From an uncultured Dehalococcoidales bacterium (GTDB lineage Bacteria > Chloroflexota > Dehalococcoidia > GIF9 > AB-539-J10), in assembly GCA_964474965.1 (NCBI GenBank), contig CAYYUO010000002.1, positions 1 through 44,303 on the forward strand: 44,303 bases of DNA, read 5' to 3'. The notes under the pieces are model-generated. The model did no database searches. It saw nothing but the letters and a program-made list of their open reading frames with translations, and was not told the origin of the DNA. This document shows, piece after piece, positions 16,100-43,872 of this stretch. A program made the position numbers and the translations under genes. Numbering within the stretch: position 1 is the stretch's first letter; each line of letters opens with the position of its first letter.

Positions 16100-16107
16100 G
16101 ACTTGAC

Positions 16108-18705: not shown

Positions 18706-18706
18706 C

Positions 18707-19443: not shown

Positions 19444-19525
19444 GACAGGAAAGGAGGGTGAAAATCTCACAAGGAGGGTAGTAGATGCTGTGAGCTGAGC
19501 AGGATGAGATTAACCTGGGGCTGTC
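19444..19525 (+). other. candidate structured leader element within a 509-nt gene-free region
   Basis: AAGGAGGGT occurs twice (19451-19459 and 19471-19479). The nested stem GACAG/CTGTC (19444-48 / 19521-25) encloses two mutually exclusive hairpins: CTCACA/TGTGAG (19466-71 / 19489-94) and AATCTCA/TGAGATT (19463-69 / 19505-11). The second SD-like motif precedes ATG-CTG-TGA (19484-19492). Confidence 0.3.
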
Positions 19526-19751
19526 TATCTACTTTCTTCTCACAATAACTGGATCACCCTGTGCATAATGCAAAGTTAATTTTGTTTACATCCTAGTTTT
19601 AGTTTTTTAAAGGTTTCCAAATTACCAAGAATTAGTTTTCGCTACGCTCGAAGTTGCCCTCGGCTGAATGTTCGTTACTCCCATATTTTGTCCTATACGA
19701 GGCAAAAACGTTAACGCGCAGCATGCCGGATGAAAGGAAGGTTATAGTAGT

Positions 19752-20435: not shown

Positions 20436-20446
20436 ACTCGAGGATA

Positions 20447-21886: not shown

Positions 21887-22042
21887 AATATGCTTATAAT
21901 CGGAGAAAACATAAGTGCGACAGATTTCAAAAGTACCGATAGAAACCGTAAGATCCAATATAAATTCAAGTGAACATGTACAATGCTCTAACTGATGTCC
22001 AACAAGTCATGCAGCTTAATAGATTAAAACTGGAGGATGATA

Positions 22043-22735: not shown

Positions 22736-22782
22736 AATAGCAATCATTCTATTGCAGACTTATTATCTGAAGGAAGGAGCTG

Positions 22783-24321: not shown

Positions 24322-24322
24322 C

Positions 24323-25012: not shown

Positions 25013-25048
25013 TGCAAATGAAGCCATTTTGAGAAAAGGAGAGCAATT

Positions 25049-26533
25049 ATGGCCGGAATTGCGGGAATTCAAGGCGCTGACAATGGCGAACTGAATAATA
25101 TGCTTGAGAGGATCAAGCATAGAGGTCCGCACGAGACCTGGATAAACCGGGAACAAGGAATCAACATGGGGTGCTGCGAGCTGAATGTGGGAGGAAATTC
25201 GAAACCCGGGGCACATCATGCGTCTGATGGGCAAAGGGCAATTGTGCTTGATGGACGTATATATAATCAAGAAAAGGCAGACATGACTGATGCCGGGGCG
25301 GTGCTCTACTTATACGACATGTTTGGCACCAATTTTGCTCAGAAATTGCATGGGAACTTTGCCTGTGCTATTTCTGACGGAGACAAGTTGATACTGGCTC
25401 GCGATACTCTAGGCATAAAACCCCTTTACTACGGGCACAGCGATGGAAAACTAATCTTTGCCTCAGAGTTGAAGAGCCTGGTGGGCATATCCGATGATAT
25501 CAAGGAATTCCCACCTGGTTATGTATACTCCCATGAGCTAGGATTTCAGCAATATACCTGCAGGGCCGTAGAAACCCCCGAGTTTCAGAGTTTTGAACAG
25601 GCCAGGAAGGTGCTAGCCAACCTGCTGGCAGTAGCCACGGAGAGACGGATGAGGGACAACTCTATTGGCGGGGTCTTTCTAAGCGGAGGCCTAGATAGCA
25701 GCCTCATAATGCTTCTGGCCAAAGAGGTTAAGCCGGATATCGAAGCCTTTACCGTAAGTATGGAGGGTGGAACAGACCTTCCCCTAGCTCAAGAGGTGAC
25801 CAAATACCTGGGTGTTAAGCATCATGTCTTGATGTTCAGCGAGAAGGAGATAATGGAGATATTGCCTCAGGCCATACACCACATAGAGATGTTCGAGGAA
25901 AGCTGTGTGCATGGAGCAATTGCCAATTTCCTGGCAGCGCGATTTGTCAGCCCTTATACTGATTGTGTTCTCACCGGAGAAGGGGCTGACGAGTTTCTCG
26001 CCGGATACGATGGTCAGTTCAGGCGAGGAGAGACACCTGAGGAGGTTGCCTGCATAGTTGACCTGCTTAGCTATGTAGCTCATAACACCGCATTACAGAG
26101 GCTGGACAGATTGATGGCGGCACACTCCATGGAAGCCCGCACGCCTTTTGTTGATGCCAAAGTAGTTGACTTTTCTATCAAGATACCCTTGAGTTGCAAG
26201 ATCCATGGCGAAAAGCAGATAGGAAAATGGATCCTGCGCAAGGCATTTGAGGGTCGTCTGCCCGACAGCATCATCTTCCAGACAAAACGTTTTTTCGCCC
26301 AGGGTTCGGGAGTAGCCAGCATCATGCGCTCGCTGGCTGAGAAGCATGTTTCTGAAAGCGAACTGGCGGAACATAACAGTAAAGAGGAGAATCCATATTT
26401 GTCTTCTACAGAGGAGCTGTACTACTATCGGATATTCAAGGAGACATTCCCCCAGCCAGTGTTCGACCGTCTAGTGGGTAGGTGGGATCCCACCAGAACA
26501 GATTTCTTTAGACGCTACGTAAGGAGAGTTTAA
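25049..26533 (+). CDS. asparagine synthetase B-like protein with degenerate glutaminase site
   Basis: The N-terminus is MAGIAGI where AsnB has MCGI. The NGE glutamine-binding block is replaced by DGR (LDGRIYN). The synthetase PP-loop SGGLDSS is intact. AAAGGAGAG precedes the ATG. Confidence 0.8.
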   Translation: MAGIAGIQGADNGELNNMLERIKHRGPHETWINREQGINMGCCELNVGGNSKPGAHHASDGQRAIVLDGRIYNQEKADMTDAGAVLYLYDMFGTNFAQKLHGNFACAISDGDKLILARDTLGIKPLYYGHSDGKLIFASELKSLVGISDDIKEFPPGYVYSHELGFQQYTCRAVETPEFQSFEQARKVLANLLAVATERRMRDNSIGGVFLSGGLDSSLIMLLAKEVKPDIEAFTVSMEGGTDLPLAQEVTKYLGVKHHVLMFSEKEIMEILPQAIHHIEMFEESCVHGAIANFLAARFVSPYTDCVLTGEGADEFLAGYDGQFRRGETPEEVACIVDLLSYVAHNTALQRLDRLMAAHSMEARTPFVDAKVVDFSIKIPLSCKIHGEKQIGKWILRKAFEGRLPDSIIFQTKRFFAQGSGVASIMRSLAEKHVSESELAEHNSKEENPYLSSTEELYYYRIFKETFPQPVFDRLVGRWDPTRTDFFRRYVRRV

Positions 26534-26581
26534 TGTCAGCTAGAAGAAGGCTGAAGCTTTAAATGAAAGAAGGTAATAGAT

Positions 26582-28171
26582 ATGTGTGGTATAGCAGGAT
26601 GTTTTGGAATACAAGATACAAAGACCATAAATCGCATGTTGGATGCACTGCCTCACCGTGGTCCAAATGACCGTGGACTCCACACTTTCGATAGCACCGT
26701 TTTTGGTCACACCAGGCTGTCTATTGTCGACGTGGTCGGAGGTCATCAGCCAATTTTAGCCAATGGTGGTAGAACAGGAATCATCTGCAACGGGGAAATC
26801 TATAATTTTTGGGATCTAAGACAGAAGCTCATACCCAAATACCAGTTTAAGACATTGTCCGATACGGAGACCATTCTTCATCTCTACCGGGAAAAAGGGC
26901 CGGAGTGTGTGAAAGAGTTGGACGGGATGTTCGCCTTTGCTCTCTTTGATGGTGACGATTTCATGCTGGCCCGCGACCCAATTGGGATAAAACCGCTCTA
27001 TTATGGCTATGTCGGAGATAAGCTTTACTTCACCTCAGAACTGGGAGCTATGACCCTGGCCGGTGTGGAGGAAGTTCACGAATTCCCCGCCGGGTACTAC
27101 TACACTCCCAAAGACGGTTTCGTGCAATACTACGAAATCCCGCCGATTGAGGACCACCTGCTGACAGAAATAGAGGAGACCTGTAAGCTGATCCGAGAGA
27201 CCTTTATCCATGCAGTTAAGAAAAGGCTACTGGCAGACAAGGAAGTCCATGTAGGCTCCTTCTGCAGTGGCGGCGTAGACAGCAGTCTGGTGGCTGCCAT
27301 CGCCGCTGATGAAATCCCCCATCTCCACACCTTCGTAGTAGGTATGAGGGATGAATCTGGGGACGAGAGTGATGACCTCAAGGCCTCTCGCATTGCAGCA
27401 GCGCACATCGGTTCAACGCACCACGAGTTGATCTTCACCGAGGAGGAGTATTATGAAGCGCTGCCAATCGTCATCAAGAAGCTGGAAAGCTACGATCCCT
27501 CCCTTGTACGCTGTGCCGTTCCCTGCTACTTCACCTGCAAGTGTGCTGCAGAGTATGTGACAGTAGTACTCACCGGAGAGGGGGCTGATGAGCTCTTCAC
27601 TGGCTATCACTACATGAAGCATTATCCTATGGATATGCTCAATAAGGAGGCCAGGCGTTGCATCGGAAACCTCCATAACATTAACCTGCAGCGCGCCGAC
27701 CGGATGGGGATGTATTTTAGTCTGGAGTTGAGGGTGCCTTTCCTGGATGTGTCTATGATTGACCTTTCCATGCAGATTCCCCCCGAGCTCAAGATTCGCG
27801 AGTCCGAAAAGGTAGGGGATAGAATCGAAAAGTGGATCCTACGCAAGGCTTTTGAGGACACGAATTATCTCCCCGACGAGATACTGTGGCGTTACAAAGT
27901 CCAATACACTCAAGGAGCGGGCTGCGAGGACCTGGGAGAAAAGCTGGCTGAGAGTGAGATAAGCGAAGACGAGTTTCAACGCATCAAGGCGGAGAATCCC
28001 AAGGCGACTATCAATAGCAGGGAGGCGGCCTATTACTTCAAAATCTTTCGTCAGTTTCACCCCCAGGACTCGATACTCGGTTCTATTGGAATCTGGACTG
28101 GGTTTGATTTTGCTGAGGAGAGAGAACGAGTTCGTGGCACCATGGATGGTGACCTGAAGCATACACGCTAA
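26582..28171 (+). CDS. asnB: asparagine synthetase (glutamine-hydrolysing)
   Basis: N-terminal MCGIAGC with the Ntn nucleophile Cys2, HRGPND, CNGEIYN, and PP-loop SGGVDSS. Confidence 0.85.
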   Translation: MCGIAGCFGIQDTKTINRMLDALPHRGPNDRGLHTFDSTVFGHTRLSIVDVVGGHQPILANGGRTGIICNGEIYNFWDLRQKLIPKYQFKTLSDTETILHLYREKGPECVKELDGMFAFALFDGDDFMLARDPIGIKPLYYGYVGDKLYFTSELGAMTLAGVEEVHEFPAGYYYTPKDGFVQYYEIPPIEDHLLTEIEETCKLIRETFIHAVKKRLLADKEVHVGSFCSGGVDSSLVAAIAADEIPHLHTFVVGMRDESGDESDDLKASRIAAAHIGSTHHELIFTEEEYYEALPIVIKKLESYDPSLVRCAVPCYFTCKCAAEYVTVVLTGEGADELFTGYHYMKHYPMDMLNKEARRCIGNLHNINLQRADRMGMYFSLELRVPFLDVSMIDLSMQIPPELKIRESEKVGDRIEKWILRKAFEDTNYLPDEILWRYKVQYTQGAGCEDLGEKLAESEISEDEFQRIKAENPKATINSREAAYYFKIFRQFHPQDSILGSIGIWTGFDFAEERERVRGTMDGDLKHTR

Positions 28172-28221
28172 GGAAAGGAGGAATAGGGTAAGGCTACACA
28201 GGGCCTGCTTTCTCGTATCCC

Positions 28222-29064
28222 ATGAAATTGAGCATCTTGGGCTCTGGGGGGTGCATGATTATTCCCAAACCCCTGTGCCAATGTCGCATCTGCCAGGAAG
28301 CCAGGAAGAAGGGTGTTCCCTACGCGAGAACAGGACCTTCTGCTTTCCTTCATGATATCAACCTCCTGATCGACACACCTGCAGAAATTGCAAGCCAGTT
28401 AAATCGTTGTCATATCCGTCGTATCGATTATCTGATATTAACTCATCTGGACCCGGACCATGTGGAAGGATTGCGCGTTGTGGAGCAGATTACGCTTGAT
28501 TTTCGCAGCTGGCGTGCCTATCCAGAAAAACAAATTTGTTTGCTACTCCCTGAACAGCTGGGCGAACGAATAAGGGAGATCCGGTCTCAGTACGGTTCCT
28601 TGGTCGATTTCTACCAGCAGAGCGGTTTTGTCAGGCTCATGCTTTTTCAGGGGGAAGTCCAGATAAATAACGTTCAGATAACTGCCATCCCAGTGGACCG
28701 AGGTTCCCAGTTAGCCTTCGTTTACGTCTTTGAAAAGTCAGGGCGCAAGATCGTCTATGCTCCCTGCGATTTCAAGCCTTTCCCGGAGTATCGAACTGAG
28801 GTTCAACAGCCCGACCTACTTGTCATCCAGCCGGGGATATTCGAGAGTGGTCTGAAACATCACTTCAAATACCCGGCAGATCACATCTCGAGAACTACTC
28901 TGTACACCTTCGAACAAACACTGGAACTGGCGGCACGCATTGAGGCGAGAAAGGTCTTGTTTGTTCATCTTGAGGAGTACTGGAACCGCAGCTACGATGA
29001 CTATTGTGCCCTAGAGTCGGACGGCATCAGGTTTGCCTACGATGGCATGCAGATAAACGTGTAG
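28222..29064 (+). CDS. MBL-fold metallo-hydrolase, PhnP/PqqB-like
   Basis: N-terminal LGSGG...CQCRICQEARKKG Cys motif, followed by LILTHLDPDHVEGL, a variant of HxHxDH. Confidence 0.7.
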   Translation: MKLSILGSGGCMIIPKPLCQCRICQEARKKGVPYARTGPSAFLHDINLLIDTPAEIASQLNRCHIRRIDYLILTHLDPDHVEGLRVVEQITLDFRSWRAYPEKQICLLLPEQLGERIREIRSQYGSLVDFYQQSGFVRLMLFQGEVQINNVQITAIPVDRGSQLAFVYVFEKSGRKIVYAPCDFKPFPEYRTEVQQPDLLVIQPGIFESGLKHHFKYPADHISRTTLYTFEQTLELAARIEARKVLFVHLEEYWNRSYDDYCALESDGIRFAYDGMQINV

Positions 29065-29140
29065 CGGCGCATACGCAGTCACGAACGTTGCTCTCCCACA
29101 TGGTGGCTTTGTCTGCCCCCAACGCTTTACAAATTCCGCC

Positions 29141-30484
29141 TCACAAGATTGGTAAATATTTCTTAAGCTCGTAGTCAGTTACTTGACTTCGGTATTGATC
29201 CCATTCGATCTTCTTATTCTCGATGAAAGCATCAAAAACATGGTCGCCAAGGGATTGTCGCACCAGTTCACTCTTTTCCGTGAGCTGGATTGCCTCCCAA
29301 AGGCTGCCGGGTAGAGTGCCTATCCCTCGTCTCTCTCTCTCCTCCTCGGTCATTTCATAAACATTTTCCTCTACTGGGTCCGGCACTTCATATTCCTTCT
29401 CGATTCCCTCTAATCCAGCAGCCAGCATAACGCTAAAGGCAAGGTAGGGGTTACAAGCAGGATCAGGAGACCTGAACTCTATCCTGGTAGCCTTTTCTTT
29501 GCCCGGCATATATTCTGGAACTCTGATCAGGTCGGCCCGATTTCGCCATGCCCATGAAAGGTACACGGGCGCCTCGTATCCCGGAACCAATCGCTTGTAG
29601 GAATTGATCCACTGATTGTTGACCGCAGTGATTTCGGGGGCGTGCCTTAATACTCCCGCGATGTAGCACTTGGCCAACTTAGAAAGATGGTGTTTATCAT
29701 TTTTATCAAAGAAGGCGTTGGTATCACCTTTGAACAGCGACTGGTGGACATGCATGCCGCTGCCATTGATGCCGGAGACCGGTTTGGGCATAAAGGTAGC
29801 GTAAACTCCCTGCTGTAAAGCTATTTGCTTGACTACCAGGCGGTAGGTCATCACATTGTCAGCCATGGTCAGGGCATCAGTGTACCTCATGTCTATCTCA
29901 TGCTGGCTGGCGGCGACCTCGTGGTGGGAATATTCAACGGATATGCCCATCTCCTCCAGGGTAAGAACTGTTTCTCGCCTTAGGTCAGTAGCGACATCCA
30001 GCGGTGTCATGTCGAAGTAGCCCCCTTCGTCCAATCTCTGAGTTCCCTTTGAATCCTGAAAGTAGAAGTACTCCAACTCCGGGCCTACATAGAAGGTGTA
30101 TCCCATGTCAGATGCTCGCTTCAAATTCCTCTTCAGTACATATCTGGGGTCCCCTTCAAAAGGCTCACCGCCGGGTCTCTGGATGTTGCAGAACATTCTG
30201 GCTACGGCATGGTGCACCCTCGGTCTCCATGGTAGCAGCTGAAAAGTGTCCGGGTCAGGCAAAGCCACCATGTCACTCTCGTCAATCCGGGCAAAGCCCT
30301 CAATAGAGGAACCATCAAAGCCCATTCCTTGTTCCAGAGCACCTTCCAGTTCCTCTACAGTAATGGCAAAGCCTTTCAGAATACCCAGAATATCGGTAAA
30401 CCAAAGCCTGATGAACTTCACATCATGCTCCTTAGCCATCTTGAGAACGTACTCTTTGCTTTCTTCATTGCTTCTATTTTCCAT
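29141..30484 (-). CDS. glnA: glutamine synthetase type I (GSI-alpha-like, no adenylylation motif seen)
   Basis: VKFIRLWFTDILG, GFDGSSIEGF, GPELEYF, SHHEVAASQHEID, NGSGMHVHQS and RIEFRSPDPACNPYL blocks. I prefer the ATG at 30484 (AAGGAGAG upstream) over the track start at 30670. Confidence 0.9.
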   Translation of the reverse strand: MENRSNEESKEYVLKMAKEHDVKFIRLWFTDILGILKGFAITVEELEGALEQGMGFDGSSIEGFARIDESDMVALPDPDTFQLLPWRPRVHHAVARMFCNIQRPGGEPFEGDPRYVLKRNLKRASDMGYTFYVGPELEYFYFQDSKGTQRLDEGGYFDMTPLDVATDLRRETVLTLEEMGISVEYSHHEVAASQHEIDMRYTDALTMADNVMTYRLVVKQIALQQGVYATFMPKPVSGINGSGMHVHQSLFKGDTNAFFDKNDKHHLSKLAKCYIAGVLRHAPEITAVNNQWINSYKRLVPGYEAPVYLSWAWRNRADLIRVPEYMPGKEKATRIEFRSPDPACNPYLAFSVMLAAGLEGIEKEYEVPDPVEENVYEMTEEERERRGIGTLPGSLWEAIQLTEKSELVRQSLGDHVFDAFIENKKIEWDQYRSQVTDYELKKYLPIL

Positions 30485-30518
30485 TCTTGCTCTCCTTTTT
30501 TGGTTTTTAATCTCCTTA

Positions 30519-30857
30519 TTATATAGCGTTGTCGCCATCCTCTCCAGTCCTGATACGCACTGCGTTATCAACAGGATAAACGAATATTTTGCCGTCTCCC
30601 ATCTCGCCGGTTCTGGCACTGCTTGCAATAGCATGCAGAATTTTGGACACATCCTCGTCCAGCACAACAACCTCGATCTTGAGCTTAGGAAGGAAGTCCA
30701 CCCGGTATTCTCCTGCTCGCCATTGCAGCAATAGTCCCTTTTGTCGGCCCCTGCCGCTTACCTCGCTAACTGTCAGGCCGAAATAACCATTTTCCTCGAG
30801 AACCATTTTTACATTTTCCAGTTTTTCTTCCCTAATAATGGCTTCCATTTTTTTCAT
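30519..30857 (-). CDS. glnK: P-II nitrogen regulatory protein
   Basis: MKKMEAIIREEKLENVK...TVSEVSGRGRQKG...AGEYRVDFLPK. 112 aa counted from the ATG at 30857. An ATGA overlap joins it to the amtB stop. Confidence 0.9.
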   Translation of the reverse strand: MKKMEAIIREEKLENVKMVLEENGYFGLTVSEVSGRGRQKGLLLQWRAGEYRVDFLPKLKIEVVVLDEDVSKILHAIASSARTGEMGDGKIFVYPVDNAVRIRTGEDGDNAI

Positions 30858-32089
30858 CGCAACAGCCCTCCATATGCCCTTTCCCCATGCTGCGAGATAT
30901 CTAAACCTACTGTTTCTTCTGTCTTGCTGACTCTTAGCCCTAGAGTAACGTCTACTATTTTGCCCAAAACCCAACTAGCACCGAAGGCAAAAGCCCAGAC
31001 AGCAGCAACTCCGGCGAACTGCCTGGCGAGCTGTAGGGCATTGCCCAGAAGCAAACCATCAGCACCAGCCGAATTAATGGCTGCGCTAGCAAAAATACCG
31101 GTGGCCAGAGCACCCCAGGTGCCTCCCATACCGTGAACCGCCCATACGTCCAGGGACTCGTCTATACCACGCTTCATTCTGAAGAGCATGCAGTAGTAGC
31201 ATATCACTGCTGCCACAATACCTATTGGTATTCCTGCCAGTGGTGGCACGAAGCCGGCTGCGGGGGTTATCGCCACCAGTCCAGCAACCGCTCCGGTGGC
31301 AATGCCAAGGAGACTGGGACGCCGTTGACGCCAGCTGAGTATCATCCAGGTGAAGGCAGCCGCGGCTGCTGAAATGTTAGTGGTGACAAACGCGCTAGCG
31401 GCCAACCCTCCCGAGGTCAGAGCACTGCCAGCATTGAAGCCAAACCAGCCAAACCAGAGCAGCCCGGCGCCAAGCGCTACCATGGGAATGTTATGAGGTT
31501 CCATAGGCTCCTTCCCCAGGAAACCTTTACGAGGACCAAGCAAGCGAGCTAAAGATAAGGCTGAGACGCCGGCAGCAATATGAACTACCGTTCCGCCGGC
31601 AAAGTCAAGTGCCCCCAATTTGGCCAGCCAGCCACCATCACCCCAAACCCAGTGTGCCACGGGGCAATACACAACAGTTAGCCATAGCACGGAAAAGATC
31701 AAGATGGCGCTAAATTTCATTCGCTCGACTACTGCCCCAGTGATTAAGGCTACGGTGATTATGGCAAACATAGCCTGAAATATCATGAAAGCCAGATGGG
31801 GAACAGTGCTGGCATAGACAGCAGATGGCTCCTGTCCTACCTGTCTCAGACCCACCCAGTCAAGCCCACCAATAATGCCTGCTTTGTCAGGACCGAAGCC
31901 CAGACTATAGCCATAGAGCACCCAGATTATGCCCACAACCGCTAAGGCAGCGAAGCTCATCATCATTGTAGAAAGAACACTCTTTCTTCTCACCATGCCG
32001 CCATAGAATAGAGCCACGCCTGGTGTCATTAGCATGACCAGCGCCGATGAAACTAGAAGCCAGGCGGTATCAGCGGCATTGACAGACAT
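30854..32089 (-). CDS. amtB: ammonium transporter
   Basis: About 11 TM helices with AmtB blocks (DTAWLLVSSALVMLMTPG, FAGGTVVHIAAG, WFGWFGFNAGS, VHGMGGTWGAL). I prefer the ATG at 32089, which is preceded by a GGGGGG run. The track start is 32104. Confidence 0.9.
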   Translation of the reverse strand: MSVNAADTAWLLVSSALVMLMTPGVALFYGGMVRRKSVLSTMMMSFAALAVVGIIWVLYGYSLGFGPDKAGIIGGLDWVGLRQVGQEPSAVYASTVPHLAFMIFQAMFAIITVALITGAVVERMKFSAILIFSVLWLTVVYCPVAHWVWGDGGWLAKLGALDFAGGTVVHIAAGVSALSLARLLGPRKGFLGKEPMEPHNIPMVALGAGLLWFGWFGFNAGSALTSGGLAASAFVTTNISAAAAAFTWMILSWRQRRPSLLGIATGAVAGLVAITPAAGFVPPLAGIPIGIVAAVICYYCMLFRMKRGIDESLDVWAVHGMGGTWGALATGIFASAAINSAGADGLLLGNALQLARQFAGVAAVWAFAFGASWVLGKIVDVTLGLRVSKTEETVGLDISQHGERAYGGLLR

Positions 32090-32134
32090 TTGGAATCCCC
32101 CCATATTTCATGTCCACAATTTAAACCCCCTATT

Positions 32135-32225: not shown

Positions 32226-32894
32226 CTAGAAGTTTTCTCGTAACCTGTAGCCAATATTCCTAACTGTCTCGATGAAGGTATGAGTTGGGTCCTCGATCTT
32301 GCTTCGCAATCTCCTTATGTGAACATCTACTGTTCTATCACCACCGTAATAGTCCCATCCCCAGACCTTATTCAGCAAAGCCTCCCGGGTAAAAACCTTT
32401 CCTTTATTGCTCGCCAGGAATTTGAGTAGCTGGTATTCCCTAAAGGTCAGCATTATTGGCTTGCCATTAAGCGATACCTCGTATTTGTCTAAATCTATAA
32501 CTAAGTCGCCACATCTAATTATATCTTCGCTGTCTATATCCCCTTTTTGCCTCAGAATTCGCTTTATTCTGGCTGTAACCTCATTTACCTCCCAGGGTTT
32601 GACCACAAAATCATCTACGCTGGAATCGAGGCCATTGAGTTTCTCTCCAGACATAAGAGCGATGAGGGGTAAGTTCATGTCTTGCCTTATACTTTGAGCC
32701 AATTCCCACGCTTCTGAACCAATCGGCGCTTCATCCGCGTCTAGCAACATCACCCCAAGGGATTGCCCCACAATTTGTTCGATTGCCTCATCATTATAGG
32801 GAACAATTAGGCAATCAAATCCACTCTGAACAAGTGCCGCCCTCAGTTTCTTTGCTTGTTCGCTTTCGTTAGCTATGATGAACACTCTAGGCAA
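32226..32894 (-). CDS. OmpR/PhoB-family response regulator, orphan, atypical receiver
   Basis: The C-terminal winged helix reads LTFREYQLLKFLASNKGKVFTREALLNKVWGWDYYGGDRTVDVHIRRLRSKIE...VRNIGYRL. In the receiver, the acidic DD pair is replaced by N-E (FIIANESE). The Asp in MLLDAD and the Lys in VVKPW are retained. No histidine kinase gene is in the window. TTG start with AAGGAAG upstream. Confidence 0.85.
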   Translation of the reverse strand: MPRVFIIANESEQAKKLRAALVQSGFDCLIVPYNDEAIEQIVGQSLGVMLLDADEAPIGSEAWELAQSIRQDMNLPLIALMSGEKLNGLDSSVDDFVVKPWEVNEVTARIKRILRQKGDIDSEDIIRCGDLVIDLDKYEVSLNGKPIMLTFREYQLLKFLASNKGKVFTREALLNKVWGWDYYGGDRTVDVHIRRLRSKIEDPTHTFIETVRNIGYRLRENF

Positions 32895-32915: not shown

Positions 32916-33662
32916 TTAGTAAGCGTAGAGTCGGCCATAGGGGCGGAGGTAAAGTGGGAAGAGTTTGATAAATTTGTGTTTCAGTATCTCCTCGGCTTGG
33001 TAGTCGAAGTGATGAGCAAATTCACCTACGAGTGCCTTTAGAACCAGGTAATCGTTTTCATCCGGTTCAGCGACACCTACCTCTCTGCCTAGTTGAAATT
33101 CCTCGATATCACCTCTTATATATATAGCGCCGCCGTGCATGCCTGTGCCGATGAAGTTCGCCTTATGTCGCTCTCCCTCTTTGAGATTTAGCCCCAGAAG
33201 AATTAGAACTCCGCCTGCCATATATTCACCCAAAAAATCCTGTGCTGTGCCACCAACAACTACCATTGGCTTTTTGTCTTGGTATTCCTTCATGTGGATA
33301 CCTGCCCGATAGCCAACATCCTCCCTGACGAAAATTTTACCCCCCCTGGCTGATAATCCAAGAATGTCCCCGGCATGACCGTGAATGATTATTTCCCCGT
33401 TGTTCATAGTGTTCCCGCAGCCATCTTGGGCATTGCCGTGAACAATAATTCTGGGACTATTCATGAAAGCACCTAAATCATTACCCGGGGTGCCGAATAT
33501 CTCAATCTCGACTGGCTTGTCTAAGTCCGTGCCGATGTATCTCTGTCCGTAGACGTTTCGCAACTCAATCTTTTGAGTTCCGTTTGATACCGCTTGCCTC
33601 AATTTGGCATTGAGTTCTCGGTAGAAAATGCCCTGGGCATCTATTGTTACAGCTTCTTTCAT
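32916..33662 (-). CDS. gltB: glutamate synthase C-terminal (GXGXG beta-helix) domain protein
   Basis: 248 aa with repeated GxxGxxxG turns: HGNAQDGCGNTMNNGEIIIHGHAGDILGLSARGGKIFVREDVGYRAG. Confidence 0.85.
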   Translation of the reverse strand: MKEAVTIDAQGIFYRELNAKLRQAVSNGTQKIELRNVYGQRYIGTDLDKPVEIEIFGTPGNDLGAFMNSPRIIVHGNAQDGCGNTMNNGEIIIHGHAGDILGLSARGGKIFVREDVGYRAGIHMKEYQDKKPMVVVGGTAQDFLGEYMAGGVLILLGLNLKEGERHKANFIGTGMHGGAIYIRGDIEEFQLGREVGVAEPDENDYLVLKALVGEFAHHFDYQAEEILKHKFIKLFPLYLRPYGRLYAY

Positions 33663-33663
33663 C

Positions 33664-35163
33664 TTAGCGTCCTGCCATCCTTACTCCCAGAATTTCTAAT
33701 TCGGTATCGGTAAGCCCTACGCCTCTCAGATGAAGGCGGTTGCCACGGAGACTTTCTAAGGCGTTGATACCCATGCCACCCAGTATGTCCTTAAGCTCGA
33801 GGCTCCAGCCGCGGAGGAGATTGGACAGCCGCCTAGCTCCGATATCAGGATTGACCCTCTTGGTTAACCAGGGGTCCGTGGTGCAAATGCCCCAGGCACA
33901 TTTTCCGGTGTGGCATTGCTGACAGGTAGTGCACCCCAGAGCGATCAGAGCAGCAGTTCCAATGTAGACGGCATCGGCGCCCAGAGCGATGGCTTTAGCT
34001 ACATCGCCACTGTTTCTGATTCCGCCTGCGATTACTACAGAGGCCTGATTTCGGATACCCTCTTGTCTGAGGCGGTCATCCACGGAAGCGAGAGCTAGTT
34101 CAATGGGAATGCCAACGTTATCACGAATTATCTTAGGTGCAGCGCCCGTAGAGCCTCGCAGCCCATCGAGAACTATAATGTCTGCTCCTGCTCGTACCAT
34201 GCCACTGGCGATAGCTGCTGAATTGTGAACAGCAGCAATTTTTACGGCTACTGGCTTGCTATAATTTGTGGCTTCCTTTAAGGCATAGACAAGCTGTGCC
34301 AGGTCCTCGATGGAATAGATGTCGTGCTGCGGAGCTGGGGATAAGGCATCTGTGCCTTTAGGAATCATTCGGGTGCTTGATACTTCGGCACTCACCTTCT
34401 CGCCGGGGAGATGACCCCCGATGCCGGGCTTAGCCCCTTGACCAATCTTAATTTCCACTACCTTGGCTATATTGAGGTATTCAGGGTGAACGCCAAATCG
34501 CCCCGAAGCTACCTGGACTATAGTGTTGTCTCCATATTTATAAAGCTTGGAGTGGAGCCCACCTTCACCTGTGTTCCACAGGGTTCCCATCTCAGTAGCA
34601 GCTCTGGCTAGGGACTCATGTACATTCAGGCTTACTGCCCCATAAGACATAGCGGAAAACATTACAGGGACCTCGAGTTTGACCTGGGGGGGTAGTTCAG
34701 TCTTAAGACCATGCGAGTCAAACTCTACCCTGTCGGGTTTCCGCCCAAGATAGGTAGTTAATTCCATTGGTTCGCGTAGAGGGTCAATAGAGGGATTGGT
34801 CACCTGGCTGGCATTAAGAACCAGATGGTCCCAGTAAATGCGGTAGCTTTTATCATTCCCCATTCCGGTGAGAAGCACTCCGCCGGTCTCGGATTGCTTG
34901 ATGATATCTTCGATAACCTCAGGGCTCCAGTTGTAGTTCTCTCTGTAATCCAGTGGATTTCTTCTGATAGTCAAAGCCTCAGTGGGACAAAAGACTACGC
35001 AACGGTGGCAGCCAACACAATTCTCCTCGCGGCTCCTTAGTTCATCGTCCTCAGTATCATAAGAATGAACATCAAAGGTGCACTGGTTGACGCACACCTC
35101 GCATCTGATACACCGGGAATCGTCTCTCTCCACTATGAATTTTGGCGGCAAATACGTCTTCAT
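33664..35163 (-). CDS. gltB: glutamate synthase FMN-binding domain protein with N-terminal 2x[4Fe-4S] ferredoxin domain
   Basis: CIRCEVCVNQC and CVGCHRCVVFCP motifs, followed by KIGQGAKPGIGGHLPG and LDGLRGSTGAAP blocks. Confidence 0.9.
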   Translation of the reverse strand: MKTYLPPKFIVERDDSRCIRCEVCVNQCTFDVHSYDTEDDELRSREENCVGCHRCVVFCPTEALTIRRNPLDYRENYNWSPEVIEDIIKQSETGGVLLTGMGNDKSYRIYWDHLVLNASQVTNPSIDPLREPMELTTYLGRKPDRVEFDSHGLKTELPPQVKLEVPVMFSAMSYGAVSLNVHESLARAATEMGTLWNTGEGGLHSKLYKYGDNTIVQVASGRFGVHPEYLNIAKVVEIKIGQGAKPGIGGHLPGEKVSAEVSSTRMIPKGTDALSPAPQHDIYSIEDLAQLVYALKEATNYSKPVAVKIAAVHNSAAIASGMVRAGADIIVLDGLRGSTGAAPKIIRDNVGIPIELALASVDDRLRQEGIRNQASVVIAGGIRNSGDVAKAIALGADAVYIGTAALIALGCTTCQQCHTGKCAWGICTTDPWLTKRVNPDIGARRLSNLLRGWSLELKDILGGMGINALESLRGNRLHLRGVGLTDTELEILGVRMAGR

Positions 35164-35164
35164 C

Positions 35165-35935
35165 TCATCCTTTTCTTACAGGTATGCCTTTTTCCGCTAA
35201 GTAATCTTTCGCCTGACGAATGGAATAAATCTGATAGTGAAAGATGCTAGCGGCGAGAACGGCGTCAGCTTTGCCTATGACTAAAGCCTCATAGAGATGC
35301 TCCAAATTGCCGGCACCACCGCTGGCAATGACCGGCACCATCACTGCCCCACTAATAGCGCGGGTTAATTCCAGGTCATATCCAGTTCGCTGACCATCAG
35401 CGTCCCAGCTGGTGAGGAGCAGTTCTCCAGCACCAAGAGCCACAGCCTGCTTAGCCCATTCAATGGCATCGGTTCCAGTAGGCTTCCGTCCCCCGTGAGT
35501 GCAGATCTCCCACTTAGCAGCAATACTATTGTTTAGTCGCTTAGCATCGATAGCCACGACAATGCACTGACTGCCAAATTTATCCGCCCCTTCAGTGATA
35601 AGCCTGGGATTCTGCACGGCGGCGGTGTTAATGGATACCTTGTCTGCCCCTGCTTTCAGCATGCGACGCGTATCTTCGATGCCACGCAAACCTCCGCCAA
35701 CGGTAAGGGGAATAAAAACCTGCTCGGAGACCCGTTCGACGATGTCAACCATGATGTCACGCCCCTCAGGGGTAGCACCGATATCCAAGAAGACAAGTTC
35801 ATCAGCACCCTCCTTGTAATAGAAAGCAGCTAGCTCTACAGGGTCGCCCGCATCTCGAAGATGAGTAAAGCTGGTGCCTTTAACTACTCGCCCTTGAGTG
35901 ACATCAAGGCAAGGGATAATTCTCTTAGTTAGCAT
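35165..35935 (-). CDS. hisF: imidazole glycerol phosphate synthase cyclase subunit, paralog 2
   Basis: [63 protein letters not shown]. Its start overlaps the GAT gene end by 7 nt. Its stop lies 1 nt before the FMN-domain gene's ATG. Confidence 0.9.
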
Positions 35936-37080
35936 TTGCGTACACCTTCTATTTCCGCAGCTGAAGCTTTCGCAAACTCAAGTGGCTTCTCCAAACTGCC
36001 TACGATAGGCTCCCCGCCCATAGGAATCCAGGCCCGGTCGAGGTCGGGAGAAACCAAGCGAATAGCTGATTCTTCAGAAGAAAGGTAAAGCACCGACCCT
36101 TTCACTCCCACTGTGAGAGGACGTAACCTTATCCTGTCAGTAAGACCAATCATCTCCCCTCGATGGGCAATGATCACAGTGAAAGGTCCATTCAGCAGAA
36201 GACTGCCATAGACTTGGCGCAAGGTTCGAAAGAGTCTTTGCTCCTCTGGGGAACAGCGCTCTATATAACTCCAGAAAGGAGGTGCTAATATCTTGGCTAC
36301 TATCTCCATGGGAAGGCCATGCCTTCGTATTAAAAGGTCAACGGCATAAGCCACCACCTCGGTGTCGGTCTGCATAGTACAGTTGTAGCCAAATTGTTCT
36401 AAATACCGTCGATTTATTCCGTAGGAAGAGATTTCACCATTATGAATCACTGTCCAGTCCAGGATATTGAAGGGATGTGCTCCACCCCACCAACCAGGAG
36501 TGTTGGTGGGAAATCTGCCATGGGCTGTCCAGAGATAACCCTCATATTGCTCCAGACAGAAATATTCTGCTATCTCTTCAGGGTAACCCACTCCTTTGAA
36601 TACTGCCATATTCTTGCCGCTGGAAAAGACGAAGGCTTCCTCCATCTTTGTATTGATTTCCATGACCCTATCCACGACATAGTCGTCCTCTGATTGCCCG
36701 TTGCTCTCGTCGGTTTTCACTTCGAGGAAGTAACGCCATACTAAGGGAGGGTTTACTATACCGGGCGTTGGCTTAGTGGGTACCTCCTTGGCATCAATTA
36801 CATGAAACTTGTGTCTGAGGAAATCCTCCACTTTGGCTTGCCCCTTCCGACTCAGATACATTATGTGGAAAGCATAATAGTCGGCATATTCAGGATATAA
36901 CCCGTAAATAGCAAACCCACCCCCCAGGCCATTACCGCGAACATGCATGTTGGCGATAGCTTCTACGACCGGCTTGCCCGAGAACACTTTCCCTGAGGTA
37001 TCCATCATTCCAAAGATGGAACAGGCATCGATCACCTTATCATCATGATAGGAGTCATTTATCCTGCTTAGTTCTTTCAA
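35929..37080 (-). CDS. gltB: glutamate synthase class II (Ntn) glutamine amidotransferase domain protein
   Basis: 383 aa. The Ntn-type Cys lies in VIDA-CSIFG after a 19-aa leader. [12 protein letters not shown] and [20 protein letters not shown] blocks are typical of the GltB N-terminal domain. Confidence 0.85.
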
Positions 37081-37104
37081 CTTAAATGCTCCAAAGCCAG
37101 ATAG

Positions 37105-38427
37105 CTACTCGCCGGCAAAAGTTTCCTCCCCAGTTTCAATAGGCGGTGTGGGTTGAAGAATTATATCTGGTGACAATGCCAGTCGCTCTTGCCACAATGC
37201 CCGGGGAAAGAATGCCAGGCCAAAATCATCGGCCAAAAGCGACTGCTTAAAGCTCTCTACATTGACCCTGTCCCTCATAAGGCCGAAAATTATACCCGAC
37301 CTTTCGATATTTCCTACAAATATCATTCCCATTATGAGGTCATTTTTCAATATGACCTTTTGATATATATTGTCTTCTTGTTTGCTAATAGTTTCATAGC
37401 TGTCGTCGTTGGGCGCTGCAGGCATACCTGCGGAGGCGATATCAATTCCAAAATAATTAAGCGAATTGATAGCTGTGCTGCCGAGATATTCATCTGTAAC
37501 GCCAGCCATGTTAAGGCCAGCAATCCTGCCTCCAATATAGGCATTAGGCCAGATGGGGGTAAGTCTATTCTCCCCGTACACGAAATCGTAAGCTTCAGCT
37601 ACATCTCCACAGGCATAGACACCTGGGTGGTTTGTGGCCATATGACGGTCTACTACTATGCCTCGGTTTATTTCTAACTTAGCATCTAGTACAAGCTCCG
37701 GGCGCGGTGATACTCCAATAGCCACTACCACTAAATCGCAGGGTATAGCAGCCCCGTTATCCAAAATAACCTCTTCAACTCTCCCTGTTCCATTGACCTT
37801 AACCACAGTCTGCCCCGCAACGATTTCCACGCCGGCCTGCTTAAGAACTTCTTCAGCCATCGAGGATGCCTGTTGGTCGAGTATAGTATTTAATATGCGC
37901 TCTTTCATTTCCACTACTATCACGTCAACCCCTCTTTTTATTAGAGCTTCAGTTACGCTAATTCCGATGAGCCCGCCGCCGATAACTACCGCCTTTCTGG
38001 CGTTATCCAGGAATCTGTCAATCGCCTTAGCATCATCAAGGTTGGTAAATGTGAAAACACCTCTCTTGCTACTCCCTTTCATCCTGGGAAAGATGGGGTT
38101 CCCTCCTACGGCGAGTAGGAGCTTTTCCCACGCAATCTGCTCGCCGTTTTCCAATTGAGCGGTCTGGTGATTTAGCTCTAAGTGGGTCACTTTCTTGCCC
38201 GGGAGAAAAATAATATTGTTCTGGTCGTAGAAGTCGAGGGGACGGAATAATATCTCCTCAAGAGTTCGTTCTCCCGTAAGGTATTTTGAGATAAGAGGGC
38301 GTGAATAGGCAGGATAAGGCTCTTCGGAAACGATGGTCAGAGCGCCTTCCTTATCCACCTGGCGTATGGCTTCAGCAGCTCCAATGCCGCCAGCCGAATT
38401 TCCTATAATCAAGTATCTGGTTTGCAT
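37105..38427 (-). CDS. NAD(P)/FAD-dependent pyridine-nucleotide-disulfide-family oxidoreductase
   Basis: Two Rossmann motifs (YLIIGNSAGGIGAA and AVVIGGGLIGISV) and a GDVA flavin block. It has no N-terminal Fe-S Cys cluster of the kind found in GltD. Confidence 0.8.
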   Translation of the reverse strand: MQTRYLIIGNSAGGIGAAEAIRQVDKEGALTIVSEEPYPAYSRPLISKYLTGERTLEEILFRPLDFYDQNNIIFLPGKKVTHLELNHQTAQLENGEQIAWEKLLLAVGGNPIFPRMKGSSKRGVFTFTNLDDAKAIDRFLDNARKAVVIGGGLIGISVTEALIKRGVDVIVVEMKERILNTILDQQASSMAEEVLKQAGVEIVAGQTVVKVNGTGRVEEVILDNGAAIPCDLVVVAIGVSPRPELVLDAKLEINRGIVVDRHMATNHPGVYACGDVAEAYDFVYGENRLTPIWPNAYIGGRIAGLNMAGVTDEYLGSTAINSLNYFGIDIASAGMPAAPNDDSYETISKQEDNIYQKVILKNDLIMGMIFVGNIERSGIIFGLMRDRVNVESFKQSLLADDFGLAFFPRALWQERLALSPDIILQPTPPIETGEETFAGE

Positions 38428-38433
38428 TTATTT

Positions 38434-39048
38434 CTAGCTCGTGCCCAGTGCTATCTTCAAAAAGTTAGCATACATCTTTAATCCATCCTCACCACTTTTC
38501 TCGGGGTGAAACTGAGTTGCGATCAAGTTATCCTTGATTACCATGCTGCACATAGACACACCATAGTTTGTTGTGCCTGCCACTACTGACATGTCTTCAG
38601 GCTCGGCATAGAAGCTGTGGACAAAGTAAAAATTGGTTTCATCAAGTATGCCCTCAAAAACAGGGTGGGTAAGTCTTTGTTTCACCTGATTCCAACCTAT
38701 ATGAGGGATTTTAAGTCCTTGGGGCAGCCTTCTTACCTTCCCTGGAATTACGCCCAAGCACTCGTGCCAGCCTCCTTCTTCAGTTCCTGAAAGCAGTATC
38801 TGCAGCCCTACGCAAACGGCGAAGAGCGGTCGCCTTCGTTGTATCAGTTGCCGAATAGCATCGGTCATACCTAGTTTCTCTAAGCTATTCATGGTATCGG
38901 CAGCGGCGCCGACACCGGGGAGGATAACTGCAGCAGCATCAAACACTTCACCCGGCTCGCTTGTTACCCTCGGCTGGTAACCTAATTTCTTAACGGCATT
39001 AGCGACACTACGCAAATTTCCTGCACCGTAGTCGATTATAGCAATCAT
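38434..39048 (-). CDS. hisH: imidazole glycerol phosphate synthase glutaminase subunit
   Basis: MIAIIDYGAGNLRSV, ILPGVGA, VCVGLQIL (catalytic Cys), QFHPEKSG. Confidence 0.9.
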   Translation of the reverse strand: MIAIIDYGAGNLRSVANAVKKLGYQPRVTSEPGEVFDAAAVILPGVGAAADTMNSLEKLGMTDAIRQLIQRRRPLFAVCVGLQILLSGTEEGGWHECLGVIPGKVRRLPQGLKIPHIGWNQVKQRLTHPVFEGILDETNFYFVHSFYAEPEDMSVVAGTTNYGVSMCSMVIKDNLIATQFHPEKSGEDGLKMYANFLKIALGTS

Positions 39049-39081
39049 GCAGATTCCTCTCCTTTGTTCGCTTCCCGGAAG

Positions 39082-39450
39082 CTAATTCTCGACAGTGACT
39101 TCCACAATGTTTTGGCGGGCGATGACTTTCGCCTCATCACCTTTTTTGACAAAGACATGCATCAATCCCAGTACTTCATATTGTCCATTTTCTAAACTGG
39201 ATGTTTCCCACCTGACCGGGAAATTCTCACGTCTATCTTCAGACTCCCCTATCTTAATCCAAGTATCTGTATTCTTCTTCCGATAGTACCAGGGATTAGT
39301 CACCCGCATGATAGGTCCCGAGATACCTAGCTCTGCCAACTCCTTACCCAACAGGTCTTCATCAAACTCCTCGCGCAGCCGAACATTGCCAGAGTACTTT
39401 TGCAACGTCTCTGAAGGCATAAGATAATGTGGTCCCCAATTATATGACAT
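39082..39450 (-). CDS. hypothetical 122-aa protein, no family recognised
   Basis: A strong AAAGGAGG lies 7 nt upstream of the ATG. I see no signal peptide or TM helix. The C-terminal WETSSLENGQYEVLGL...VEVTVEN stretch looks beta-sandwich-like. Confidence 0.6.
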   Translation of the reverse strand: MSYNWGPHYLMPSETLQKYSGNVRLREEFDEDLLGKELAELGISGPIMRVTNPWYYRKKNTDTWIKIGESEDRRENFPVRWETSSLENGQYEVLGLMHVFVKKGDEAKVIARQNIVEVTVEN

Positions 39451-39476
39451 GATACACCTCCTTTAGATTGATTAAG

Positions 39477-39501
39477 CCAATGGAACGATAATATCCATTG
39501 G
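39477..39501. repeat. perfect 8-bp inverted repeat between the ferredoxin gene and orf122
   Basis: CCAATGGA-acgataata-TCCATTGG. No U-tract follows on the minus strand. Confidence 0.4.
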
Positions 39502-39523
39502 ATCAAACCAATTGCCTGGCTTT

Positions 39524-39979
39524 CTATGTTAGACTCTCATTTTGTACCTCCACGTAGACTAGTGCCTCATTGGGGCAATTTGTGACACAAACTGGAATAT
39601 CTTCTCCTTGGCAGAGGTCACATTTAAGCACCTTCTTTTGTGCCGTGTCTTGCTTTATCGCCCCGTAAGGGCAGGCTACTATGCACGTCCAGCAGCCAAT
39701 ACACTTTTCCATATCAACGCTGACCATGCCACTTACAGGGTCTTTGTGCATCGCACCGGTAAGACAAGAATAAACACACCAGGGCTCGTCGCAATGGCGA
39801 CATTGAATGGGAAAAGAAATCTCTACATTCCTCTCCACACGCACACGGGGCAAAGGACGTGGAGTCTCTTTTTTAAATGCCTTGATTAGGTCCTTAGACT
39901 GGGATTGCTCTACCTGGCAATAAACTCGACACAGGCCGCAGCCAATGCAGACCTCTTCATTAACATATATTCTTTTCAT
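39524..39979 (-). CDS. 4Fe-4S poly-ferredoxin (four Cys-cluster motifs, CooF/HybA-like)
   Basis: CIGCGLCRVYC, CRHCDEPWCVYSC, CIGCWTCIVACP and CDLCQG...CVTNCP motifs. Confidence 0.85.
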   Translation of the reverse strand: MKRIYVNEEVCIGCGLCRVYCQVEQSQSKDLIKAFKKETPRPLPRVRVERNVEISFPIQCRHCDEPWCVYSCLTGAMHKDPVSGMVSVDMEKCIGCWTCIVACPYGAIKQDTAQKKVLKCDLCQGEDIPVCVTNCPNEALVYVEVQNESLT

Positions 39980-40221
39980 GCTCCAAATACTTTAGGTAAC
40001 ACTGGACTCTGGATCTTAGCGAGTTTCATTTCAGTATAGCTCATATGGGCAAGATAGCCAAGTGGTTGGTGTAGACGATTGAAATTATATTCTATGTCAT
40101 TGTCGGGCCAACTGCGCAATTAACTTCCGAAGTTGAGATTACATTTCGTACAAGTAAGATACATGGTGTAGTATGCCCTATTAGTCACTCAAGAAATTCC
40201 CTGCTATAATTGACAACAGCT

Positions 40222-43264: not shown

Positions 43265-43400
43265 ATAGCCCTTTCTTTAATTCCCTCACGTCATGATAGA
43301 GGAAGTCTATAACAAAAACCCCTGTGCCAGTGAACACAGGGTTAACTTAAGCCTCGGCAGGCAAATCATTTAAACCCTCAGGGTACCTGCTGTCACTGGC
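43265..43400 (-). promoter_or_regulatory. rplJ 5' leader (candidate L10-leader autoregulatory RNA)
   Basis: About 135 nt of untranslated leader lie between a strong promoter and the rplJ ATG. It contains a terminator-like hairpin, consistent with known L10(L12)4-controlled leaders. Confidence 0.45.
43311..43340 (-). terminator. intrinsic-terminator-like attenuator hairpin inside the rplJ leader
   Basis: Minus strand reads CCCTGTG-ttcactgg-CACAGGG followed by GTTTTTGTT. Confidence 0.5.
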
Positions 43401-43408
43401 GTCGGGCT

Positions 43409-43436
43409 ATTATAACACAAGGAATCAATTAGTCAA
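43409..43436 (-). promoter_or_regulatory. strong sigma70-type promoter for rplJ-rplL
   Basis: Minus strand reads TTGACT (43436-43431), a 16-nt spacer ending in TGT (extended -10), then TATAAT (43414-43409). Confidence 0.55.
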
Positions 43437-43718: not shown

Positions 43719-43734
43719 ATTTCCTACGATTGAA

Positions 43735-43830
43735 CATGGCGTTTCTCCGAGCCAGTCTGTCTAACGGGTAATCCTATGATAGATAGCTGATAGGGCATAG
43801 CCGAAAGCGGAGATGCCTCCCGTGTTTGGG
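43735..43830 (+). promoter_or_regulatory. candidate molybdenum-cofactor (Moco) riboswitch aptamer
   Basis: It contains CTCCGAGCC (43745-43753), the internal hairpin CCTAT...ATAGG (43772-43795), CCGAAAGCGG (43801-43810) and GCCTCCCGT (43815-43823) followed by GGGAAGGAG. The order and wording match my recollection of the Moco RNA motif, for example the 3' part of the E. coli moaA leader. It lies upstream of a molybdopterin-dehydrogenase subunit gene. Confidence 0.5.
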
Positions 43831-43872
43831 AAGGAGAAGTGTCTTAGAGAAGAGAGACACCGGAGTTTTTTT
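43817..43872 (+). terminator. terminator-like hairpin plus U7 downstream of, and overlapping, the aptamer 3' end
   Basis: CTCCCGTGT (43817-43825) can pair with ACACCGGAG (43857-43865), with one mismatch, directly before TTTTTTT (43866-43872). A shorter local stem GTGTCT/AGACAC (43839-44 / 43855-60) is an alternative. Confidence 0.4.

Follow-up and report, generated by a model that had tools for sequence, protein, structure and literature searches.

Why should the two subunit genes of imidazole glycerol phosphate (IGP) synthase, hisH and hisF, lie interleaved among the genes of a split glutamate synthase (GOGAT)? The question is raised by a contig of an uncultured Dehalococcoidales bacterium (CAYYUO010000002.1, assembly GCA_964474965.1, positions 1-44,303), the whole 44,303 nt of which we refer to as the window. 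A sequence-only reading of this DNA had offered two answers: a conservative one, that consumers of glutamine are co-regulated, and a bolder one, that a HisF barrel takes the place of the missing central domain of the split enzyme, whether as a structural element or to channel ammonia. Our contention is that the first is probably right; hisH and hisF would encode an ordinary IGP synthase embedded in a nitrogen and glutamine supra-operon, and their link to glutamate synthase would be regulatory and not structural.

The array in question comprises eight co-directional genes on the minus strand, for which the table of open reading frames (ORFs) agrees to the base with the coordinates and overlaps first reported, just as Pfam and NCBIfam profile matches agree with the identities first proposed. 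From the 5' end, these are a four-cluster [4Fe-4S] ferredoxin (Fd; 39524-39979), which matches Fer4_11, resembles HydN, DmsB and the N-terminus of PadI and carries four Cys motifs; orf122 (39082-39450), an optional operon member of 122 aa that matched no Pfam or NCBIfam family; hisH, for the glutaminase subunit of IGP synthase (38434-39048; TIGR01855, 216.5 bits against a cut-off of 105.4); a flavin adenine dinucleotide (FAD)/NAD(P)H oxidoreductase with Pyr_redox_2 and Rubredoxin_C domains, similar to PadH and the NirB N-terminus (FADox; 37105-38427); the class-II (Ntn) glutaminase subunit of glutamate synthase (GAT; 35929-37080; Pfam class-II glutamine amidotransferase); a hisF copy for the cyclase subunit, whose product we call HisF2 (35165-35935; TIGR00735, 385.4 bits against a cut-off of 294.55); the flavin mononucleotide (FMN)/synthase subunit (33664-35163), in which an N-terminal 2x[4Fe-4S] domain precedes a Glu_synthase match of 458 bits; and the GXGXG or beta-helix subunit (GXG; 32916-33662; PF01493, 110 bits). 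The junctions are tight. GAT and hisF share the seven nucleotides ATGCTAA, a single nucleotide separates hisF from the FMN gene, six nucleotides separate hisH from FADox, and no internal terminator signal within the cluster rises above background.

This arrangement is not the accident of one genome. A scan with the GAT subunit, taking one genome per species, recovered 80 loci, all from Dehalococcoidia/Chloroflexota and with GAT proteins 74-97% identical to that of the window. When the window proteins were placed on these loci by tblastn, the order Fd-hisH-FADox-GAT-hisF-FMN-GXG was found to be kept in 64 of the 68 loci that are informative at both positions, and the interleaving is far beyond chance. 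The short junctions are conserved with it; GAT and hisF overlap in 37 of 75 loci, and in 65 of 67 the hisF and FMN genes are no more than 27 nt apart. The interleaved order is nevertheless restricted to a single clade, in which GAT is at least about 70% identical. Between Fd and hisH, orf122 is found in a minority of loci, and in others its homologs lie near or just after glnA. In one genome (L009) an insertion of about 1.3 kb (11976-13315) separates hisF from the FMN gene.

The layout has been present in public annotation since 2005-2010, and the window is a further instance of it, built from known kinds of enzyme. In the 2010 pan-genome model of Dehalococcoides mccartyi (Islam et al., PMC2930330), HisB, HisC, HisD and HisG are genes 230-233, and IGP synthase is assigned only to genes 273, 294 and 297, of which 294 is HisF, 273 a second HisF and 297 HisH. 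The same model lists GlnA as gene 290, parts of an NADPH-dependent glutamate synthase as genes 292, 293 and 295 (the last of GAT type), and an NADH-dependent glutamate synthase as gene 296 or 298. If this numbering is taken as genome order, it mirrors the order in the window, and cultivated D. mccartyi would share this layout, with two hisF genes and a single hisH, located in the cluster. The window differs in adding MttB-type methyltransferases, orf122 and a glutamate synthase-like (GltS-like) gene right after its other hisF paralog. The model handles these genes as separate reactions and passes over their interleaving without comment, and our literature search found no paper that joins Dehalococcoides, glutamate synthase and hisF or discusses the layout, nor any that mentions DET1127-DET1132.

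HisF2 scores 367 bits against the reconstructed HisF-LUCA and 272-301 bits against the IGP synthase structures of Thermotoga maritima and Thermus thermophilus (1gpw, 1ka9). Using T. maritima numbering, in which the ammonia gate is formed by R5, E46, K99 and E167 and coupling to HisH involves Asp98 and Gln123, residues R5, D11, E46, D98, Q123 and D130 and both phosphate sites are invariant across 69 HisF2 orthologs, and K99 and E167 are kept in 68 of the 69. The full complement of catalytic, gate, phosphate-binding and HisH-coupling residues known from Thermotoga and Thermus is present. The catalytic aspartates D11 and D130 occur in both HisF copies of the window, as had been noted from the start. 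The HisH protein is equally regular, its nucleophile motif CVGLQ and its FHPEKSG motif aligning with the solved HisH structures 4gud and 1ka9. What sets the window apart from Thermotoga and Thermus is genomic context; its genes lie outside any his operon with hisA, and two GOGAT-related genes stand between them. A search of 81 related loci with a HisF profile found no hisA or other his gene within about 10 kb of the cluster. By these residues HisF2 is predicted to be a canonical HisH-coupled cyclase subunit, without indication of neofunctionalisation.

Naturally occurring deletions offered a test of the proposed complex. Both hisH and hisF have gone from the operons of three genomes (L034, L076 and L078); a fourth (L054) has no hisF, the position of its hisH falling off the contig, and a fifth (L057) has lost hisH with hisF still in place. 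Among informative loci, 64 have both genes, three have neither and one has hisF only (Fisher p = 8e-5). The GOGAT genes are intact in the loci with losses, and GAT and FMN are 38-117 nt apart. The deletions have left scars, at 8383-8659 in L034, at 8500-8708 and 11120-11218 in L076 and at 478-538 in L057. Remnants of the 5' end of hisH, consisting of its first codons, persist in the gaps of L034, L057 and L076, where the last reads GTGATTGCCATAATTGAT and encodes VIAIID; in L076 the hisF start overlapping the GAT stop also remains (AAATGCTAACTAAA). Since the four loci without hisF (L034, L054, L076 and L078) are scattered on the tree of GAT and FMN, their losses were independent. Four Dehalococcoidia lineages have thus kept a tight GAT-FMN-GXG array after deletion of hisF, and hisH has gone too wherever its position can be read, which argues against HisF2 as a subunit of the enzyme.

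Split glutamate synthases outside this clade point the same way. When metagenomes were scanned starting from distant GAT representatives, 62 loci emerged in which GAT is less than 70% identical. Both GAT and FMN are present in 51 of these, arranged in at least five ways (GAT-FMN-GXG, FMN-Fd-FADox-GAT-GXG, FMN-GAT-GXG, Fd-FADox-GAT-FMN-GXG and GAT-FMN-Fd-FADox-GXG), and in none of the 51 does hisF stand between GAT and FMN; 47 have neither hisF nor hisH in reach. The remaining four have hisH and/or hisF right after GXGXG, as an adjacent pair in L089, L102 and L141 and as hisH alone in L130, so that here the two his genes adjoin one another at the end of the cluster and do not part its members. 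In L089 (10125-12819) an FMN-Fd-FADox-GAT-GXG cluster is followed by hisH, hisF and carA. Gene fusions tell a similar story, since the long GAT relatives that we checked are fusions of GAT to GXGXG wherever a second domain is detectable, and no natural GAT-HisF fusion was found among 150 representatives. Two candidates for such a fusion were rejected. P0174, a metagenome protein of 169 aa in which GAT from about 158 to 244 is joined to HisF from about residue 48, is probably an assembly chimera or an internal deletion across the GAT/hisF junction, and P0153 is a mistranslated sequence of high GC-content.

Taken together, the natural deletions, the distant clusters, the fusions and the residues of HisF2 indicate that HisH and HisF2 act as a pair, which by these signs would be the IGP synthase of the cell, and that split glutamate synthase neither needs nor generally has a HisF encoded in cis. 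The earlier suggestion that HisF stands in for the central domain finds no support on any of these counts, and the D. mccartyi model, in assigning only the in-cluster hisH to the IGP synthase reaction, adds to the difficulty.

What had been said of the glutamate synthase itself has fared better. The window contains the archaeal-type trio of separate genes, for an Ntn glutaminase, an FMN/synthase subunit with 2x[4Fe-4S] and a GXGXG subunit, clustered together, and their products are predicted to form a split glutamate synthase. The claim that this is a three-polypeptide enzyme without a central domain is upheld by Pfam, which places the domains on three separate ORFs, none of them central; no ORF of the cluster carries a separate central domain, and a match to PF04898 overlaps the FMN subunit's own synthase barrel. 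Nor does the cluster contain a single-chain large subunit or a GltD-type gene, as the bacterial GltBD type would require. In 160 related loci these three genes again form a cluster, arranged in several different orders, and GAT has 1209 relatives in a representative library. The conserved Cys of GAT is residue 20 of the ORF and follows a leader of about 19 residues that is also kept in relatives, so that a propeptide may be removed. Against the synthase domain of GltB in Azospirillum brasilense GltBD (2vdc/6s6s) the FMN subunit scores 218 bits; the two systems share a homologous synthase domain, an Ntn glutaminase, a GXGXG beta-helix and the same chemistry, but GltB is a single chain of 1500 aa with a central domain, receives its electrons through GltD and is not associated with his genes.

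In place of GltD, we need to account for how electrons would reach the FMN subunit. The sequence-only reading proposed that the flavoprotein and the four-cluster ferredoxin replace GltD, and comparative context bears this out well. Wherever a cluster has Fd and FADox, the two are neighbours, they shift as a unit among clusters with different orders of GAT, FMN and GXG, and in L130 (5516-7315) they are a single fused ORF of 599 aa; because of this fusion we consider that they work together. The electron path would run from NAD(P)H to the FAD of FADox, through the [4Fe-4S] chain of the ferredoxin to the 2x[4Fe-4S] domain, and finally to FMN. Both proteins have their best NCBIfam matches in NADH-dependent phenylglyoxylate dehydrogenase, FADox to PadH (315 bits, cut-off 475) and ferredoxin to PadI (85 bits, cut-off 700), in each case below threshold. 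The resemblance is of architecture only, a FAD/NAD(P)H reductase alongside a poly-[4Fe-4S] protein, and the partner enzyme in the window is a glutamate synthase and not a 2-oxoacid oxidoreductase.

A close analogue of the enzyme as a whole is the split glutamate synthase of methanogens such as Methanothermobacter, which is putatively F420-dependent and for which a fourth, FrhB-like F420-binding subunit has been proposed (Kaster et al. 2011, PMC3087415). It too has a separate glutaminase, an FMN/synthase subunit with a ferredoxin-like N-terminus and a GXGXG subunit, without a central domain, and methanogens likewise employ NrpR-family regulators in nitrogen control. The window differs in having a four-cluster ferredoxin and a FAD/NAD(P)H oxidoreductase in place of the FrhB-like subunit, and in the interleaving of hisH and hisF.

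If not as part of the enzyme, the presence of the his genes must be explained by their surroundings, and these are dominated by glutamine. Continuing on the minus strand, the array is followed by a gene for an OmpR-type DNA-binding regulator (32226-32894; Trans_reg_C only), 21 nt 3' of GXGXG and in the same position in most loci; by amt for an ammonium transporter (30854-32104; TIGR00836, 478 bits); by glnK for a P-II protein (30519-30974; PF00543, 104 bits), whose predicted ORF begins too far 5', the P-II domain occupying residues 40-145; and by glnA for a type I glutamine synthetase (29141-30670; TIGR00653, 546 bits). With a threshold of E<=1e-5, the DNA-binding domain is all that is detected in the OmpR-type protein, which has an atypical receiver domain and recalls orphan nitrogen regulators of the GlnR type. 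A consensus scan also matched a candidate sigma-70-like promoter (TTGGCC-16-TATAAT) at 40084-40111 on the minus strand, 5' of the ferredoxin gene. The proposed supra-operon would then run Fd, (orf122), hisH, FADox, GAT, hisF, FMN, GXGXG, regulator, amt, glnK, glnA. Elsewhere in the window are pdxT (12466-13197, plus strand; TIGR03800, 228 bits), for the glutaminase of pyridoxal phosphate (PLP) synthase, purSL, purQ, a glutamine-dependent nadE and two asnB, in addition to the nrpR gene described below. At least seven glutamine-amidotransferase genes thus fall within about 40 genes of the 44-kb window, beside genes for glutamine synthetase, GOGAT, Amt, P-II and NrpR.

Several features of this neighbourhood deserve mention in their own right. 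The amidotransferase genes form a dense run from 12466 to 30670 (pdxT, purSL, purQ, nadE with its CN-hydrolase domain, and two asnB) between nrpR and its adjoining hisF on one side and glnA on the other, and pdxT has no pdxS beside it. Two pairs of genes, each for an MttB-family methyltransferase and a corrinoid protein, occupy 20417-25012 on the plus strand, and the Rfam pyrrolysine insertion sequence PYLIS_3 matches (57 bits) at 21410-21509 inside the first mttB-like ORF, which is uninterrupted. Towards the end of the window are a molybdenum cofactor (Moco)/tungsten riboswitch aptamer (43733-43852, plus strand; 53.6 bits) and an L10 leader (43304-43417, minus strand) 5' of rplJ-rplL.

The same kinds of gene have been added to the cluster more than once. 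The his genes are joined to split-GOGAT clusters in three different arrangements. Eight genomes (L006, L016, L019, L020, L025, L042, L064 and L070) carry a pdxT-like gene between FADox and GAT, encoding a glutaminase 52-62% identical to the PdxT of the window; such a gene was noted also in L154. Because hisH/hisF, pdxT, carA, purQ/purL, nadE and asnB have repeatedly been recruited to a locus of glutamine synthetase, GOGAT and Amt, we take this to point to selection for co-expression of the producers and consumers of glutamine. The conservative reading of the interleaving, as co-regulation of glutamine consumers, fits all of this context, from the amidotransferase island of the window to the additions of pdxT and carA elsewhere.

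In the mechanism that we propose, hisH and hisF, once parted from the rest of the his genes, would have come to lie within the GOGAT operon, where IGP synthase would be co-transcribed, and through overlapping stop and start codons co-translated, with the enzymes that make and use glutamine. The locus as a whole would gather glutaminase-bearing amidotransferases (hisH, GAT, pdxT, purQ/purL, nadE and asnB) beside glnA, glnK, amt and nrpR, and the supra-operon would be placed under nitrogen control, probably through the NrpR-family and OmpR-type regulators that the locus encodes. Certain observations weigh against this account. No shared operator was found; the NrpR operator GGAA-N6-TTCC is absent 5' of the Fd, amt and glnA genes, and an Rfam scan of the cluster gave no riboswitch or leader RNA. 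Both HisF paralogs are co-operonic with an FMN enzyme of the glutamate synthase family, a recurrence that the neighbourhood alone explains only loosely, and the parallel with D. mccartyi depends on our taking gene numbers for gene order. As to candidate operators, the sole GGAA-N6-TTCC site in the window lies at 12429-12442, in the divergent region between nrpR and pdxT, and was discarded as it is not conserved 5' of nrpR in relatives; a repeat resembling CGGYAA-N4-TTRCCG is enriched 5' of Fd in some relatives and was set aside likewise, being absent from the window.

The recurrence of hisF beside a second FMN enzyme leads to the first of the alternatives. On the minus strand, divergent from pdxT, lies a gene for an NrpR-family nitrogen repressor (11409-12446; PF01995, 291 bits, and HTH_12, PF08461, 77 bits), with the winged helix and NRD1/2 domains of the methanogen type; NrpR homologs of Dehalococcoides have been noted earlier as archaeal transfers. 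One nucleotide downstream is a second hisF, for HisF1 (10637-11407; TIGR00735, 332.8 bits, above the 294.55 cut-off), and a further 21 nt downstream a gene for the GltS-like protein of 529 aa (9026-10615), which has a Cys cluster at its N-terminus and matches Glu_synthase weakly (52 bits). It shares 25% identity with the FMN subunit, retains the motifs GQGAK and DG..GGTG, lacks a GAT or GXGXG partner, and has neither an NCBIfam match nor a PDB relative by sequence. The nrpR-hisF1 pair, which we read as coupled in translation, is present in every locus with hisF1 (the window, L015, L017-L019, L021, L030, L042, L077 and L082-L085), but the adjacency of hisF and GltS genes behind nrpR, to which the sequence-only reading had drawn attention, stands in the window and is only partly conserved elsewhere. 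Close relatives have the order nrpR-hisF1-NuoE-like-NuoF-like-Fe-S protein-GltS-like, three electron-transfer genes intervening; in other loci hisF1 and the GltS-like gene are directly adjacent in some, and in one there is no GltS-like gene at all. Operon membership is largely conserved, then, and adjacency is not. Genes of the window type are also found without hisF1, just 5' of Fd, and the GltS-like proteins comprise two subtypes about 50% identical to each other. The run of NuoE-like, NuoF-like and 2Fe-2S/4Fe-4S genes followed by a GltS-like gene can be seen in L082 (10815-15456), in L083 and L085, and partially in L017, L042 and L084. Such a GltS-like protein would be a GAT-less and probably NADH-linked enzyme with a glutamate synthase domain.

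HisF1 is 57% identical to HisF2, and a phylogeny of the two, such as had been called for, puts it in a clade of its own. Across nine orthologs from genome loci and 120 metagenome homologs its catalytic, gate and phosphate residues are essentially invariant, yet position 98 is S, N, G or D in the former and S (101), N (15) or D (4) in the latter, and at position 123 E or D predominates in either set. Because D98 and Q123 are not conserved, HisF1 is probably uncoupled from HisH, which suggests either a cyclase that works independently of HisH or one that relies on another glutaminase. That it is specifically a HisH-independent cyclase, using ammonia or another glutaminase, paired with a GAT-less, NADH-linked GltS-like enzyme, we regard as unlikely. 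A model of two nitrogen modes goes further, making HisH/HisF2 and the GAT-containing GOGAT glutamine-dependent, and HisF1 and the GAT-less, NuoEF-linked GltS-like enzyme ammonia-dependent; the pairing of hisF with a GltS gene would then mark parallel modules of isoenzymes, each serving its own nitrogen status. In its favour are the retention of D11, D130, the gate and the phosphate sites while D98 and Q123 have changed; the citation of D98A as dramatically altering the allostery induced by N'-[(5'-phosphoribulosyl)formimino]-5-aminoimidazole-4-carboxamide ribonucleotide (PRFAR); the constant pairing of nrpR with hisF1; and the intact motifs, missing partners and Nuo-like companions of the GltS-like protein. 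However, methanogen NrpR represses under nitrogen sufficiency, a poor fit to an operon for an ammonia mode, the GltS-like protein has no NCBIfam match or PDB relative by sequence that would suggest a substrate, and a different glutaminase, such as the PdxT encoded divergently, may serve HisF1. The two-mode model would extend our explanation without contradicting it; it is attractive but speculative, and we give it a low probability.

A second alternative is that there is nothing to explain beyond history. A single insertion of hisH and hisF in a Dehalococcoidia ancestor might have been kept simply because compact genomes seldom rearrange tight operons, co-expression bringing no selective gain. 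Genomes of the Dehalococcoidia group are streamlined, the interleaved order occurs in one clade only, and its occasional loss leaves the flanking genes undisturbed, all of which speaks for a neutral accident. But hisH and hisF have been recruited independently elsewhere in other arrangements (L089, L102, L130 and L141), pdxT and carA have been recruited too, and seven amidotransferase genes in 44 kb beside glnA, glnK, amt and nrpR are hard to account for without selection for co-localisation. We consider a purely neutral origin quite improbable.

The bolder proposal, that the HisF2 barrel belongs physically to split GOGAT and replaces its central domain, with translational coupling setting the stoichiometry, can appeal to the overlaps or very short gaps at the hisF junctions in most relatives, to the true absence of a central domain from an enzyme whose bacterial counterpart uses its FMN and central domains to line the ammonia tunnel (Vanoni 2021), to the co-operonic position of both HisF paralogs with FMN proteins of the glutamate synthase family, and to a sequence search of the PDB that gave no split GOGAT structure to show how the tunnel is built, but the hisF-less operons, the distant clusters, the fusions of GAT to GXGXG alone and the retention by HisF2 of every residue for HisH coupling and PRFAR binding make it highly improbable. 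A weaker form, in which HisH-HisF2 docks on split GOGAT in a lineage-specific and dispensable manner, helping to build or gate the ammonia path, or joins it in a looser glutamine metabolon, we likewise regard as very unlikely.

We return, then, to what is probably an ordinary IGP synthase, encoded where glutamine is made and spent. This explanation leaves our understanding of either enzyme unchanged, and we would argue that HisF is not the answer to how split glutamate synthase builds an ammonia tunnel without a central domain. For annotation there are two consequences; hisH and hisF of Dehalococcoidia should not be expected in a his operon, and Fd and FADox can be described as the predicted reductase of a split GOGAT that would have five subunits and depend on NAD(P)H. 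For the biology of the organism the implication is broader. If the conservative reading is true, the locus would be a clear case of genome organisation by shared substrate, in which a streamlined anaerobe has gathered the glutaminase steps of histidine, PLP, purine, NAD and asparagine synthesis beside glutamine synthetase, GOGAT, Amt and P-II, and placed them under regulators of archaeal type.

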